Positions 2,134-8,800 are shown, counted from the first letter of the stretch. The stretch: DNA of 64,000 nucleotides from an uncultured delta proteobacterium (GCA_963733195.1 CAVTCR010000055.1:1-64000); one strand, 5' to 3'. Numbers and translations are program-made. Notes: a model not told the origin generated them from the letters alone.

Positions 2134-2231
2134 TCCTCACAAGTCGTTCCACCGCATCGCCGCCCTGTTGTGGTTCTGCTAAATCTGAAAGGGTGCGTTT
2201 GAGCAGCTCGCGGTGACCGGGAGCGTTAGCC
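2134..2231 (+). mobile_element. attC: Integron attC site 2 (degenerate R'' TCCTCAC)
   Basis: Ends in GTTAGCC; caccgc/gcggtg inner arms; same ~100-bp layout as neighbouring attC sites. Confidence 0.75.
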
Positions 2232-2262
2232 CCTTGACCGGTATGTGATTGTCCTGTCTTAA

Positions 2263-2833
<571 letters not shown>

Positions 2834-2871
2834 TCGGCGACGTTAGCCTGCTCGGATAAGAAGGGAATCTG

Positions 2872-3288
2872 ATGTCAGCAGAAAACAAAGCTGTTGTCCG
2901 CCGTCTCATCGACGAGGTGTGGAATCAAAGAACCTTCGACGTGCTGGATGACCTCTTCGCTGCCGATGCCCTCGTTCACGACAGCGGCGCACCCTTGCCC
3001 ACGCGTGGGCCGACGTGCGCCCGGGAGGGTATCGGCGCGGCTTGCGCGGCGTTTCCCGATATTCGGATCAACATCGACGACCTCTTTGCCTCAGACGACA
3101 AGGTCGTGCTGCGCTGGTCCTCCCACGGTACACATCGCGGTGAGCTGCAGGGCATCCCACCCACCAACCGTCCAATGACGATGACGGGCATTGCGATTTA
3201 CCGATTCGCTGACGGCAAGATTGTTGAGGAGTGGATGAACAACGATACCTTGGGCATGTTGAGACAGCTCGGAGTAGTACCCGGATAG
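2872..3288 (+). CDS. SnoaL-like ester cyclase; cassette 4
   Basis: ENKAVVRR...AFPD...GTHRGEL.GIPPT...GKIVEEW...LRQLG. Confidence 0.9.
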   Translation: MSAENKAVVRRLIDEVWNQRTFDVLDDLFAADALVHDSGAPLPTRGPTCAREGIGAACAAFPDIRINIDDLFASDDKVVLRWSSHGTHRGELQGIPPTNRPMTMTGIAIYRFADGKIVEEWMNNDTLGMLRQLGVVPG

Positions 3289-3327
3289 CACTGGCCGTTG
3301 TTCGAGCTCGCATGAGCGAGGCTCGCA

Positions 3328-3426
3328 GACTAACATTCCACTGCGCTGTATTGCCGTCCGGTTGCAGATTGGGGAAAATTCGAACGGTCTCGTTTGGGCG
3401 ACAAACAGTGACTGGCGGCGTTAGCC
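3328..3426 (+). mobile_element. attC: Integron attC site 4
   Basis: GACTAAC...GTTAGCC; cactg/cagtg inner arms; 99 bp. Confidence 0.85.
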
Positions 3427-3494
3427 CGTTGAGGGAAGCTTCCAACTTGCTCTCATTGGTTGTAGCTTGCTGTATACTATGAAAATATACACCC

Positions 3495-3809
3495 ATGATC
3501 GACTTCGAGAAAATCGAAGGGTTCGATTGGGATGCCGGTAATGATCGTAAAAGTGCAGACACACACCAGGTCAGCCAAGCTGAAGTCGAGCAGGTCTTTT
3601 TCAACGTGCCGCTCGTGCTCGCCCCTGACGTAAAACACAGCCAGACTGAGCCTCGCTTTCACGCCCTGGGGAAGACCACGGCGGGACGGTTGTTGCACCT
3701 TACGTTCACCCTGAGATTTGATGGGAGAAAGATCCGCCCCATCTCTGCCCGCGATATGCATCGCAAGGAAAGGCACGTGTATGAAGAGCAAGCTCAAACC
3801 ACTCCCTAG
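3495..3809 (+). CDS. brnT: BrnT family toxin; cassette 5
   Basis: GFDWDAGN..K...H.VSQAEVEQVF...IRPISARDM. Confidence 0.9.
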   Translation: MIDFEKIEGFDWDAGNDRKSADTHQVSQAEVEQVFFNVPLVLAPDVKHSQTEPRFHALGKTTAGRLLHLTFTLRFDGRKIRPISARDMHRKERHVYEEQAQTTP

Positions 3810-4116
3810 ATTCAAAACCGAAGCGGAAGAACGCGCATTCTGGGAGACGCACGACTCAACGGAGTACGTGGACTGGTCCACGGCGCGACGAGTGCGATTC
3901 CCGAATCTAAAGCCCTCGACGCAAGCCATCTCGTTGCGTCTGCCGGTCTCGCTGCTTGAACAGATTAAGGTAGAGGCCAATCGACGCGATGTCCCCTACC
4001 AGTCGCTGATCAAAGTGTGGTTAGCGGAGAAAGCTGAGCAGGGGCAGGGGACAGCTTACGGGCTAACAAGTCATTTCACCCGACCGCGGCCTGCGAGCGG
4101 CTCTGAGCGAACCTGA
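3781..4116 (+). CDS. BrnA/CopG-type antitoxin; ORF reads into attC5
   Basis: F.TEAEERAFWETHDS...ISLRLP...PYQSLIK.WL. Confidence 0.88.
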   Translation: MKSKLKPLPRFKTEAEERAFWETHDSTEYVDWSTARRVRFPNLKPSTQAISLRLPVSLLEQIKVEANRRDVPYQSLIKVWLAEKAEQGQGTAYGLTSHFTRPRPASGSERT

Positions 4117-4159
4117 AAGGACCCATTTAGGCCGCGACGAGTGACCGTCGACGTTAGGC
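4061..4159 (+). mobile_element. attC: Integron attC site 5
   Basis: GGCTAAC...GTTAGGC; cgcggcct / aggccgcg arms; 99 bp. Confidence 0.9.
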
Positions 4160-4199
4160 GTTATGACATCAACTTTTGCCAAGTGAGAGAGGAAACACG

Positions 4200-5153
4200 A
4201 TGATTGACCGTAACTTTGAGATGCTGAAGACCAATGGGGTCACGTTACGCACCGTAGTCGAAGGTGAGGGGCCTCTCGTCATTTTGCTGCATGGGTGGCC
4301 GCAATGCTGGTATCTCTGGCGGCACCAAATCGACCCCCTCGTGGAAGCGGGGTTTCAAGTGGCGGTGCCCGATCAGCGCGGTTTCGGCGGCAGTGATCGG
4401 CCACCTGCCGTCGCCGACTACAACATTCGTACACTCGCGGCTGACATCGCTGGCATCGCTCCTGCCCTTGGTCACGACAAGTTCAGGCTGATTGGTCACG
4501 ACTGGGGCTGTGTCGTGGCCTGGAACACGGCGCTGTTACACGAAAAGACCTGCCAAGCCGTCATGGGGTTGTCCGTGCCCTTTTGGCGGGTGACAGCTGA
4601 TGTGATCAACCCGCCGGGCATGGATGATCGTTTCTGGTACATCCGTTATTTTCAGCAGCCGGGAGTCGCCGAGGCCGAGCTTGAGCGCGACCTGGAGCAG
4701 AGCCTGCTCTCGATCTATTACACCCTCTCCGCAGACGCGCCGCCGACAAGCTTTATGAAACAGTTGGAGCACCCAAAAACGAGCAGCCTCCTCGATACCA
4801 TGGTGACGCCGAAGCAGCTCCCCTCCTGGCTCACCCAAGAAGATCTTACGTATTATGTCGAGCAGTACCGGTCGAGTGGCTTCCGGGGTCCGATCAATTG
4901 GTATCGCAACATTCCAACCAACACCGACATCACTCCGGAATTGGAGTCGAAACGGTTCACACAGCCCGCCGCCTTCGTCGCCGGTGCAGCAGATGACGTG
5001 CTCCTCTACGACCCCAACTGGCGCACCACGTTCCCCAAGGCGTTCGATGATCTGCGGTTTATTGAAATTGTGGAAGGCGCGGGGCATTGGGTGCAGATGG
5101 AAAAGCCCAAGGAAACGACGGCGCTGATCCTGCGCTTTCTCCGGGGACTCTGA
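4200..5153 (+). CDS. Epoxide hydrolase-like alpha/beta hydrolase; cassette 6
   Basis: HGWP, DQRGFG, GHDWG nucleophile motif and GHWVQME. Confidence 0.9.
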   Translation: MIDRNFEMLKTNGVTLRTVVEGEGPLVILLHGWPQCWYLWRHQIDPLVEAGFQVAVPDQRGFGGSDRPPAVADYNIRTLAADIAGIAPALGHDKFRLIGHDWGCVVAWNTALLHEKTCQAVMGLSVPFWRVTADVINPPGMDDRFWYIRYFQQPGVAEAELERDLEQSLLSIYYTLSADAPPTSFMKQLEHPKTSSLLDTMVTPKQLPSWLTQEDLTYYVEQYRSSGFRGPINWYRNIPTNTDITPELESKRFTQPAAFVAGAADDVLLYDPNWRTTFPKAFDDLRFIEIVEGAGHWVQMEKPKETTALILRFLRGL

Positions 5154-5185
5154 ACAGCCGAGCGACCCACCGAGAGGGCCAGGAC

Positions 5186-5901
5186 GCCTAATCGGGTAAG
5201 GACGGTCATCGCTGACCGCCCTCCCCACACCACCTAGCATGCGGGTCCGCACTAGGCGGTTCAGGCAGGATGGGAAGTGAGACAAGTCTCCCCCAAGGCT
5301 GGGTCGATGACCCTCCGCCGTGAAGTCACTACCTGGTTCAGGTCTGGCTCGTCGAGGTGGTCACCCCTCCGCCTTGTCCTCCCTGTTCGGTCCTTCACTC
5401 GGCCTCGAAGGGTGGTGAGCTATATGACCGCGGCTGACTTCTGCTCCGGGCTCAGCGCGGCTTACGCCTACGCTGCAGTCGTTTCCGTGGCACGCCACTT
5501 CCCAGGACACGGAGCAGATCTCCCCGGATAAGAACGTGAGTGGTTACGGCACAAGCGCGCCATTTACCCCATCCCCCGATTCACCGGACTTCGTTGTGTG
5601 GTGCCAACTCGTCCCAGGGAAACGAGCCTTCTATGGCGTTCGTGTTCCTCGCCTCGCCGTACCGTCGCCGGCTTCCTTCAGACCTCACCTCGCGGTGACG
5701 CCCTTGCCTTGGACTCGTAGTTATCCTCATGGTATCTTGCGATTCATGAAGGTGAACCTCCTACAGGGGACTTACACCCCCACACTCACGCCCATGCCGG
5801 GCGTACACATGATGCGCCCACCGCATCGCCGCCCGCGTGCGGTTCTGACCGAAGCCGAAGGGCCTCGGCTGGGCGGCTCGCGGTGAGCTTCAGCGTTCGG
5901 C
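5186..5901 (+). mobile_element. attC: Integron attC site 6, interrupted by a group II intron
   Basis: Removing 5191-5806 restores GCCTA|AC...GTTCGGC, 100 bp. GCCTAAC is complementary to the cassette's 5' GTTAGGC. Confidence 0.88.
5191..5806 (-). ncRNA. Group II intron, class IIC (attC-targeting), lacking an RT ORF
   Basis: Minus strand begins GTACGCCCGGCATGGG and ends with domain V (GAACCGCCTAGTGCGGACCCGCATGCTAGGTGGTGT, CGC triad) and domain VI ...CCTTACCCGAT. Only 616 nt long. Confidence 0.88.
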
Positions 5902-5925
5902 GGACACCGGATGTGTGAGATTAGA

Positions 5926-6162
5926 ATGAATCAACCAGAGTTTGAATCATTTCCGGCAGAGGTAGCACTCAGGCTTAAGACCTACGTTTACCGACTCATT
6001 GACCCGCGAAACGGGGAGACCTTCTATGTCGGGAAGGGACAGGGCAATCGCGTGTTTTCGCATATTCGCCTTGAGCAGAAGCTGGAAGGTGACGAGCTCG
6101 ACAACGACGTGAGCGCCCGCGCTAAGACAGCACCTTCGTTCACGCAAAGGAGGATTGTATGA
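5926..6162 (+). pseudogene. Truncated GIY-YIG (LEM-3-like) nuclease N-terminus; cassette 7 remnant
   Basis: YVYRLIDPRNGETFYVGKGQGNRVFSH motif; recognisable similarity stops near 6110. Confidence 0.7.
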
Positions 6163-6286
6163 GCCAACACACTTCTGAAGTGATTCGTAAACCGCAGACC
6201 GACACGCGACTGCTGGACGATATTCTTTCCGAATACAGCTGCAAAAGCTTGGCGCGAGATTGGCAGCCCAGTACATATTCGAAACG

Positions 6287-6694
6287 CTAGGGAAGGAGCC
6301 AATCTTCTAGTTGGAGGTCGGCAACCCGAGATAAATGAGCGGTGTTATGCGTGACCAGAACCACATCATTCACCAGAGCAATGGCTGCCATGAGCAGATC
6401 AGCATCTTCTATGAGCTGACCAACCGCTCGCAGATCAGCATAGATCTTTGCCGCCCTATCCAGAGCGGCCTGGTCGAACATGACAATGCCTTGTGCTTGC
6501 CACAGTCGCTCGAAAACCGCCAACTGGGTCTGCGCGCCGGCAAAGAGCAATCCTCTCTTCGTCTCGTAGTAACTGACCGCATTGAGCATCACAGGATGAC
6601 CTGCGACTTCTGCCTGCCGGATGCGTTGCATCACCAACGGGTTTCTTTTGAGGTGCGCTGTGACAATGTTCGTATCAAGGGTGTAGCCCGTCAT
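6287..6694 (-). CDS. vapC: VapC/PIN domain toxin
   Basis: LDTNI...E...DLLMAAIAL....LVTHN..H..RV..L.LEDW. Confidence 0.92.
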   Translation of the reverse strand: MTGYTLDTNIVTAHLKRNPLVMQRIRQAEVAGHPVMLNAVSYYETKRGLLFAGAQTQLAVFERLWQAQGIVMFDQAALDRAAKIYADLRAVGQLIEDADLLMAAIALVNDVVLVTHNTAHLSRVADLQLEDWLLP

Positions 6695-7712: not shown

Positions 7713-8659
7713 ATGTCAAGACTTGAAACGTCCATTCTGCTGGGCGCTGTGGTGATGTTGGCAGCGGTCGTTCCGGCATCAGCCGCGGACAGATATAAAG
7801 GATTCGAGCGGGCCGAGGCACTTATCACGGTCCAGGAGCTGAAACAGCTGAGCGAGGCCAAAGACCCCAAACTTGTGCTGCTTGGCGTAGTCGAGCCGAT
7901 ATCTTCGGGGCCGGTCATATTCCTGGGTCTGTTAATATCTGGCGGCCGGACTATGAGCAGCCGGTGAGTCCGTCGCAGCCGATTGAAGGCTTGTTGCTGG
8001 GGCGCCAAGCATTCCAGGATTTTGCGCGCGGCCTTGGCATCGACAACGACTCACGCGTTGTCGTTTACGACGAGAAATATGACGCGACAGCCATATGGTG
8101 GGCTTTCTTCCTGTACGGCAAGACCGACGTGCGGGTGCTGGATGGCGGGTATCCGGCGTGGAAGGCCGCTGGTTACCCGACAGAGTTCTCTCTCAGCGGT
8201 GCCCGGCCTGCGCGGGTGGGGGATTTCGTGGCCCGGCAACACGGCGCCGCCTGGCTCGCGAGCATGGAAGACGTCCGGCGCGCCCAGGCCGCCAGCGACG
8301 TGCGGGTCTGGGACGCGCGAGAACCCGCCGAATGGACCGGCGAGGAGAAAAAGGGCAACGCACGGCGCGCCGGCCGCATTCCCTGGGCGACGTTCCAGAG
8401 TTGGCAGGAGTACCGGACCGAGATTGACGGCAAAGCCACGGCCTTTAAGACTGCCGCGGAGATTCAGCAGGTCATCGACAAGTTCGGCATGGATCGTCAA
8501 CAGACTCACATCTTCTACTGCCAGTCTGGCGTCCGCAGTACAACCGCGATCTTCGCGCTCTATCTGATGGGCTGGAGTCCAGAGCGGCTCTTCAATTACG
8601 AGGGGTCATGGCTCGAGTGGAGCTACTACGATCAGAATCCCGTCTTGACTGGCCACTAA
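7713..8659 (+). CDS. Double-domain rhodanese/sulfurtransferase with N-terminal signal peptide, frameshifted
   Basis: VLDGG..AW, GRIPWA, YCQSGVRS active site, YEGSWLEW; hydrophobic leader ending ASA-A. Confidence 0.85.
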
Positions 8660-8800
8660 CCTCACGCACGGCCGCCTTACCATGGCGGCCTGCATATCTG
8701 CCACGACGGCAGTGCCCGGCGCATAAAGTCGGCGCCGCAACTCGGGACTCGCTTCCCAATGCAGGAAGTCCGTACCCGAAATAAGAAAGAGCAGTCTTCC

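Follow-up and report, generated by a model that had tools for sequence, protein, structure and literature searches.

A split attC site in a cassette array

The window analysed here, a 64,000-nucleotide stretch of DNA from an uncultured delta proteobacterium, carries a run of small cassette genes and attC-like recombination sites, one of which is split by a minus-strand group II intron of 616 nt (Table 1). The small cassettes between the upstream sites include SnoaL-like and CopG antitoxin genes by Pfam, and a gene for an alpha/beta hydrolase precedes the split site. Iterated nhmmer searches place members of one attC family in the window at 2138, 2752, 3331, 4064, 5807 and 7514, which makes the split site the fifth, and not the sixth as the sequence-only reading had counted it. 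The genome to which the window belongs, here G000, is a draft of 6.95 Mb in 87 contigs that is 93% complete.

Table 1. Features at the split attC site and its surroundings (window coordinates)
Feature	Position	Strand	Basis
Four upstream attC-like sites: 2138-2228, 2752-2845, 3331-3423, 4064-4156	2138..4156	+	nhmmer, E 1.2e-19 to 1.5e-14
Alpha/beta hydrolase cassette ORF, 325 aa, upstream of the split attC	4176..5153	+	Pfam Abhydrolase_1, E 2.1e-30
Left part of R'' box (GCCTA), parted from the rest by the intron	5186..5190	+	sequence, reconstruction
Whole ORF-less IIC-attC-type intron	5191..5806	-	sequence, Rfam, consensus fold and covariation over 10 ORF-less copies
Domain VI, bulged A 7 nt from 3' end	5193..5227	-	RF00029 alignment, consensus fold
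Domain V, CGC catalytic triad	5229..5260	-	RF00029 alignment; helix 25 99.2% paired, 2 compensatory pairs
Domain IV remnant, intron positions 422-545, long hairpin	5262..5385	-	alignment with ORF-bearing cognate L023; helices 21-24 88.6-98% paired
Domain III, positions 378-418	5389..5429	-	helices 19-20; RF01998 below gathering score
Domain II, positions 285-371	5436..5522	-	helices 15-18, 7 pairs changed on both sides
Domain I, positions 6-284	5523..5801	-	RNAalifold consensus, RF02001 alignment
Candidate EBS1 hairpin loop GCACCACA, in domain I	5597-5604	-	flanking stem with compensatory changes (helix 14)
Rest of attC: AC of R'', L'', loop, L', R'	5807..5901	+	nhmmer with the genome's attC-family profile, 5807-5897, E 1.8e-17
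First ORF past attC, 83 aa, no Pfam match	5911..6162	+	ORF call, Pfam

An attC site is an imperfect palindrome of 60-140 bp with an R'' box (RYYYAAC) and an R' box (GTTRRRY), located after cassette ORFs in a genome that encodes the integrase IntI. Across G000, the iterated search recovered a family of imperfect palindromes of ~90 nt that follow cassette genes, with 67 matches in small clusters on 29 contigs; among the full-length members, 33 of 42 start with YAAC and 36 of 42 end with GTTR. The genome furthermore encodes a full integron integrase (C33:20009-20953; 477 bits with TIGR02249, cut-off 265), and three or more further intI genes are broken and contain stop codons. Their place after cassettes, their ends and the full integrase identify these palindromes as attC sites.

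Removal of the intron joins GCCTA to ACATG... (5807 onward) and rebuilds a 100-bp attC with the R'' box GCCTAAC and the R' box GTTCGGC (5895-5901), predicted to fold into a hairpin of -65.4 kcal/mol. The rebuilt site thus has both boxes, lies in an array and has an IntI encoded in the same genome. The junction reads GCCTA/AC on the top strand and ...CATGT/TAGGC on the bottom strand; since excision restores the R'' box GCCTAAC, the intron lies in the attC bottom strand, flanked by GT and TAGGC of R'', and is antisense to the plus-strand cassettes. Both the insertion point and the 100-bp attC restored by excision had been read from the sequence alone, and the reconstruction and the match to the attC profile bear them out. 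The bottom strand, the R'' box, a TTGT/T-type junction and the antisense orientation are also how the seat of IIC-attC introns is described (PMC3001079, PMC7923331).

With most of R'' parted from the rest of the site, recognition by IntI should fail, given that IntI recombination needs an intact R box; the intron should thereby fuse the hydrolase cassette to the next one. DNA homologues of the hydrolase cassette, 72-84% identical, occur in 40 of 54 genomes of the family. Four of these homologues were inspected and proved to be ordinary genes that no attC follows, so the 55 family genomes offer no empty-site allele for comparison. Among contigs from public sequencing runs, one is 98% alike over 4300-5191 (X2, record 25) and another is alike over 5055-5191 (X1, record 4); both matches end at the 3' boundary of the intron, with 21 and 14 letters beyond it, respectively, which is only a hint of an allele without the intron. 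No joint spanning the intron position, as an empty allele would give, is listed among the public-run contigs. Two contigs from RNA runs (X15, X16) resemble the intron at 88-95% likeness and represent relatives of the window copy.

Ribozyme architecture and the deleted reverse transcriptase gene

The intron starts with GTACGCCC at 5806 (in a longer read, GTACGCCCGGCATGGGCG) and ends with ...TACCCGAT at 5191 (longer, GGTCAGCGATGACCGTCCTTACCCGAT), so that the RNA has the ends 5' GUACG ... GAU 3'. Rfam scoring, proposed in the sequence-only reading, places two models above gathering: RF02001 (group-II-D1D4-3), matched end to end at 106.7 bits against 32 (5533-5699, minus strand), and the domain V/VI model RF00029, which under permissive filters reaches 40.7 bits against 40 (5191-5261, minus strand). 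A third model, RF01998, scores 28.9 bits, under its gathering score of 35 (5390-5476, minus strand). The six domains, the conserved domain V and the bulged A of domain VI are those of a group II intron. Class C (IIC) introns are distinguished by a CGC instead of an AGC triad and by insertion after a hairpin, with short IBS1 and IBS3. Accordingly, the window intron has CGC at the triad position in the RF00029 alignment, the attC hairpin directly 5' of it, GT at positions -2/-1 and T at +1. The sequence and the Rfam alignments therefore agree with the earlier description of a 616-nt minus-strand element with a GTACG 5' end and a CGC triad. An ORF survey and a search for similarity to reverse transcriptases (RTs) found no RT-like ORF inside the 616 nt, again as first read, and domain IV holds no RT/maturase of the intron's own, the gene that marks the mobile retroelement form. 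It is close to certain that a ribozyme-only intron is seated in the R'' box of an attC site.

The secondary structure was derived with RNAalifold from 10 intact ORF-less copies with a mean column identity of 86%, and comprises six domains and 191 pairs. In this consensus, 95.0% of cells are paired, compared with 89.9% in shuffled alignments and 38-46% in slid registers, and 38 pairs are changed on both sides, compared with 25.1 +/- 2.6 after shuffling (0 of 500 shuffles reach 38) and 4-10 in slid registers, a control in which the observed value is favoured by the derivation of the structure from the same 10 sequences. Compensatory changes occur in every domain. For example, two D6 variants differ on both sides in 7 of the 15 pairs of helix 26 in domain VI, and the domain IV hairpin, which is no longer held by coding constraint, is 95% paired across its 26 pairs. 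The large gap to the controls and the compensatory changes in every domain show that the ribozyme fold is maintained under selection. Domains I-III, on whose folding the intron call depended, thus fold with compensatory changes, and the short domain IV, put at ~100 nt in the sequence-only reading, measures about 124 nt in the consensus fold.

The pairing of EBS1 with IBS1 was also inspected. The candidate loop, GCAC(A/C)ACA, offers an ACA that is able to pair with TGT of the exon, but the variable base of the loop and IBS1 position -3 do not vary together: of 13 copies scored by eye, 6 are concordant and 7 discordant (the count leaves out a 14th copy, G003_C354).

Like known IIC-attC introns, such as S.ma.I2 of Serratia marcescens and the blaIMP-4 IncN-plasmid intron, the window intron is a class C ribozyme with a CGC triad and the same target. 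Unlike them, it is devoid of the ~420-450-aa RT/maturase that they carry in domain IV, and no Pout-like promoter was detected at it: a search for outward sigma-70-like promoters found 0 promoter-like and 0 terminator-like sites in window 5000-6300. On plasmid NZ_MZ643942.1, the intron adjoins blaIMP-4 in antisense orientation, starting GTACGCCCAGCATGGGC after ...GCTTTGT and ending ...GGCTACCCGAT before TAGAAAT. It has the 5' end GTACGCCC and the 3' end ...CTACCCGAT as in the lineage described here, on a TTGT/TAG target. The GUACG 5' end, common to this plasmid intron, is therefore typical of the lineage and not a mark of decay.

RT-bearing cognates were found in two related genomes (L023, L022), whose introns align to positions 1-513/519 and 525-584 of the short form and have a further ~1.24 kb between these two segments. 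The inserted sequence is an ORF for a protein of 445 aa, in which Pfam recognises RVT_1 and GIIM domains and, at E <= 0.001, nothing else. This protein is 53-54% identical by tblastn to ltrA products of Klebsiella, Enterobacter, Citrobacter, Serratia and Pseudomonas plasmids, and 53% identical to the RT of the NZ_MZ643942.1 intron. The intron-encoded proteins (IEPs) of IIC-attC introns form a monophyletic attC subset of class C RTs. One full-length cognate measures 1857 nt, with GTACGC...TACCCGAT ends and a TTGT/T target. Intact 445-aa RTs are present in G005 and G011, and fragments of cognate RTs in G002, G003, G008 and G013. Several of these fragments lie at contig ends, so draft assemblies may hide full-length copies. 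In one of the two cognates (L022, G011:C6 ~140-225), the RT is intact, the final nucleotides of domain VI are gone and TACCCGAT is absent before the TAGGC exon, so that this possible RT source would be unable to splice normally itself.

By comparison with these cognates, the short form keeps the ribosome-binding site, the start codon, ~28 codons, the last ~7 codons and the stop of the RT gene, and is without roughly codons 29-438. What remains on either side of the deletion pairs to form the domain IV stem, topped by a small variable loop. By this alignment, the short form is a clean internal deletion of the RT ORF with the domain IV stem kept, in keeping with one of the two origins envisaged in the sequence-only reading. 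In the window copy, domain IV still holds a GGAGG ribosome-binding site, the GTG at 5364 with which the RT gene once started, and remnants of ~28 N-terminal and ~7 C-terminal codons, the frame being broken after 8 codons. Across 26 complete copies, an in-frame remnant of 34-36 codons survives in 12 and the start codon is gone in 8; hence, the remnant is not consistently kept as coding sequence.

An alternative is that a full-length intron of 1.86 kb was collapsed to 616 nt during assembly. The genome is a draft of 87 contigs and the best public run contains only a 0.22 share of its sampled words, a share about as large as the intron, but assemblers do not collapse unique coding sequence, of which the missing 1.24 kb consists, and the short form recurs with unique flanks in independent assemblies (3 copies in G000, 10 in two other genomes and 16 in metagenomes). 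We therefore give an assembly artefact practically no credence.

Distribution of the ORF-less lineage

Within G000, three further copies of the intron were found, all in other attC sites. One is intact (C56; 621 nt, 89% identical to the window intron) and two are interrupted: a copy on C66 (92% identity) by a 1.2-kb insert after position 42, and a copy on C6 (91% over positions 1-384) by another element. The four copies follow different attC hairpins, with the junctions CATGT/, TTGGT/, GTTGT/ and CTTGT/, and the 3' exon begins with T in the three copies whose 3' exon is assembled (the C6 contig ends earlier). As the four are only 87-92% identical to each other, nothing shows recent movement in G000. 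The presence of same-length copies in other attC sites, for which the sequence-only reading had suggested a search, extends beyond this genome to related genomes and metagenomes, as set out below.

The two interruptions differ in kind. The insert in C66 (C66:40479-41700) interrupts domain I at a TA and has genes for a DDE_3 transposase and an HTH protein. The element in C6 (C6:101556-103946) is nested at about position 384-386, in domain III/IV, starts GTGTGCC and encodes an RT with GIIM. It is 98.6% identical to C39:31877-33893, and the inner RT frame on C6 looks frameshifted. The C6 contig ends inside the nested element, so that domain IV of the outer copy is outside the assembly. Twintrons, and homing into introns, were reportedly described in archaea by Dai and Zimmerly in 2003. 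The C6 copy resembles them in having an RT-bearing element nested in domain III/IV; unlike in established twintrons, no domain V was detected for the inner element, despite its GIIM RT and GUGUG 5' end. The arrangement is thus a probable twintron, a call that is provisional for this reason.

G000 contains other group II introns as well, with matches to the group II maturase domain in at least nine places. On C48, two ORF-less introns of a different type (~4772-5539 and ~7936-8738, plus strand; L009), ~770-800 nt long, score 97 and 93 bits with RF02005 and have an AGC triad and a GAAA loop. They start GTGCG inside the R' box of attC on the top strand (GCGTTA/GTGCGCC...), in sense orientation to the cassettes, and judging from this orientation could be spliced from cassette transcripts. 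Moreover, a locus on C3 (~89078-89707; L013) has the same D1D4-2 and domain V scores as one on C35 (L012); the gap between the RNA parts is 435 nt on C3, compared with ~1600 nt at the C35 locus, which has an RT. By this spacing, the C3 locus appears to be a second case in G000 of an ORF-less derivative, here from a different intron family.

A search for a cognate RT-bearing intron had been proposed. Such introns are present in the two related genomes with 445-aa RTs; in G000, no close or intact cognate RT was found in an assembly that is 93% complete. The best RT match in G000 is a broken gene on C64 with 62/52/42% identity, in three pieces separated by 2.4 kb. In a wider collection of genome contigs, the cognate RT had only relatives at 62% identity or less among the matches listed.

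Matches to the intron occur in 16 of 41 related genomes, a count that includes G000; in G003 alone, nine copies or more were found, with lengths of ~550-750 nt. At a threshold of E <= 1e-30, 10 of 55 genomes of the family have a match, and these represent 7 of 10 genera. In a class-wide sample of 401 genomes, with only two candidates scored per genome, strong matches were confined to the intron's own family (8 of 54 genomes, versus 0 of 346 in 19 other families). Metagenomes were searched with a pattern specific to the ORF-less D4/D5 junction, which requires domain IV to be short: CCCAGCCT.G of the domain IV arm, 20-45 nt from CCTGAACCGCC..GTGCGG of domain V. This pattern has matches in at least 120 stretches. 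Among the 80 metagenome loci listed, most of which are cut by contig ends, 16 hold complete copies, bringing the complete ORF-less introns from genomes and listed metagenome loci to 26, all 614-647 nt long. ORF-less introns of one lineage, ~615-630 nt long, thus occupy many attC sites, both within a single bacterial family and in metagenomes from soil, sediment and groundwater.

The target consensus of the 26 complete copies is TTGT/TAGGC. Upstream of the insertion point, T occupies position -4 in 19 of 25 copies, T (17) or G (8) position -3, G position -2 in 25 of 25 and T position -1 in 24 of 25; downstream, T is found at +1 in 26 of 26, A at +2 in 21 of 26, G at +3 in 23 of 26, G (19) or C (5) at +4 and C at +5 in 22 of 26. 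The attC profile, which was built from G000 only, matches 12 of 23 reconstructed target sites and does not match the other 11; in all 12, the intron is on the bottom strand. The 3' flanks of 14 copies have a median likeness of 56.4%, compared with 54.5% after shuffling. Being no more alike than shuffled sequence, these flanks place the copies beside different cassettes. The deleted form is therefore present in multiple copies at independent targets.

Most copies are about 74-92% identical to one another (a difference of 8-25%). In contrast to this, three copies, G003_C582, L161 and L193, are 97.4-98.6% identical and have different flanks: G003_C582 differs from the other two on both sides, and L161 and L193 have 25 nt of 5' flank in common and differ in their 3' flanks. 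Near-identity at different flanks suggests that some of the spread is recent.

The copies could instead be immobile relics, that is, old ORF-less insertions spread passively by cassettes that IntI moves, by horizontal transfer or by recombination between copies. The 74-92% identity of most copies, the star-like tree (see below) and the lack of a detected cognate RT in G000 fit such relics, and the common 5' flank and different 3' flanks of L161 and L193 are what intron-internal recombination would give. However, relics would not account for compensatory changes in every domain, domain IV included, for 3' flanks, and with them the tied cassette, that are unrelated in 14 of 14 copies, or for the near-identical trio with different flanks, and we consider this account very unlikely.

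Several metagenome loci depart from the simple form. In 12 of the 80, the match begins no earlier than intron position 282 and the contig extends at least 500 nt further upstream; in three of these (L163, L175, L192), Rfam detects domain V of another intron upstream, and the remainder may be 5'-truncated copies, nested elements or copies with divergent 5' parts. In L194 and in L214, two ORF-less copies are arranged head to head at a distance of ~50-150 nt, as would result if both strands of a single attC hairpin had been entered. L207 has two copies in tandem, repeating every 619 nt, perhaps as an effect of assembly, and a copy in G003 (L047, C86:401-1152) has a 127-nt insertion in domain II.

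Probable mode of spread and possible consequences for integron arrays

How often the RT gene was lost bears on how the lineage multiplies. A tree of the 5' half of the ribozyme is near-star, with 3 of 19 inner branches well supported and, within G000, only the pairs C55/C66 and C56/C6 well supported. It does not separate the ORF-less copies as a clade from the two ORF-bearing ones, and is therefore compatible with one ORF loss as well as with several. The deletion junctions fall into at least two types: a short domain IV tip in 9 of 10 aligned copies, and a tip longer by ~5-6 nt in one aligned copy and one other, which matches the ORF-bearing sequence to the base. Two junction types and partial RT remnants leave room for more than one loss, and the ORF may have been lost repeatedly.

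Taken further, each short copy could have been made anew from a full-length donor and never itself have served as template, either because the RT skips from one side of the domain IV stem base to the other while copying the RNA or because the ORF is deleted once the intron is in place. Junctions that vary by a few nucleotides in two length classes, RT remnants of intermediate size in G003, G013, G008 and G002, and a tree that does not part the two kinds of copy are all consistent with such recurrent loss. Yet short copies far outnumber the two complete ORF-bearing copies found in the samples examined, three short copies at different sites are near-identical, and at least 10 short copies have a domain IV variant, PGP.RATAL, that is absent from the 2 complete ORF-bearing copies (only 2 were compared). 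Repeated generation from full-length donors is thus an unlikely explanation.

We consider it probable that the lineage spreads, or has spread, as a non-autonomous IIC-attC intron using an RT supplied in trans, its mobility being suggested by the distribution of its copies. According to this model, an internal deletion in domain IV removed the RT/maturase gene from a ribozyme of the IIC-attC type that stayed complete from domain I to VI. A short RNA would be transcribed from the strand opposite the cassettes, fold into an active ribozyme and be bound by the 445-aa RT/maturase of a full-length relative, the likely binding site being the retained domain IV hairpin with its old ribosome-binding site and start codon. 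The complex would then reverse-splice into single-stranded hairpins of the attC bottom strand at TTGT/T, followed by DNA copying. Supplied with RT in this manner, the intron would behave as a non-autonomous retroelement. As no cognate RT was found in G000, the copies there may currently be stranded.

In most descriptions, bacterial group II introns are autonomous retroelements. ORF-less introns in bacteria are presented in PMC4424553 as rare and nearly always found alongside related IEP-bearing introns, and non-mobile derivatives as seemingly not persisting for long; its examples include cyanobacterial ORF-less introns spliced in trans by a related IEP, and C.te.I1 of Clostridium tetani. The present introns resemble those discussed there in having lost the IEP and kept the ribozyme, with related IEP-bearing introns that could act in trans. 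In contrast to that rarity, the short form occurs in 7 of 10 genera of one family and in at least 120 metagenome matches, and is tied to attC. Genome-wide counts of ORF-less introns, with increases in certain genomes, are given in PMC8919778, whose accessible sections note no link to attC. A full-text literature search found no published report of an ORF-less IIC-attC intron, although earlier lists of ORF-less introns could include members. What sets this multi-copy, multi-genus lineage apart from the known IIC-attC introns is its missing IEP, together with the number of its copies and their spread. In its mode of life, the lineage recalls MITEs and SINEs, with an internal coding deletion, retention of the parts that the enzyme needs and many copies at the target of the autonomous element; the likeness ends there, since the window element is a ribozyme-based retroelement with a presumed dependence on a partner RT.

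A broader reading, which we put forward tentatively as less likely than not, is that ORF-less IIC-attC introns form a long-lived, actively spreading class of non-autonomous retroelements that freezes or joins cassettes and is a main shaper of large sedentary arrays. If so, they would be the 'MITEs of the integron world', using RT in trans with the domain IV hairpin as its handle; splitting of R'' would freeze cassettes, or recombination between copies would join new genes to attC sites. The idea that attC introns may help to join genes to attC sites has been raised in PMC7923331. Hydrolase homologues that reside outside cassettes as ordinary genes, among the homologues in 40 of 54 related genomes, are compatible with such a gene-joining role.

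Should the prolific ORF-less lineage prove to be what it appears, it would mean that ribozyme-only introns persist and multiply in bacteria and that intron surveys based on RT genes miss such elements. The lineage also represents a natural minimal IIC ribozyme with a known target, suited to mechanistic work. For the bacteria that carry them, integron arrays would hide a layer of elements able to disable recombination sites.
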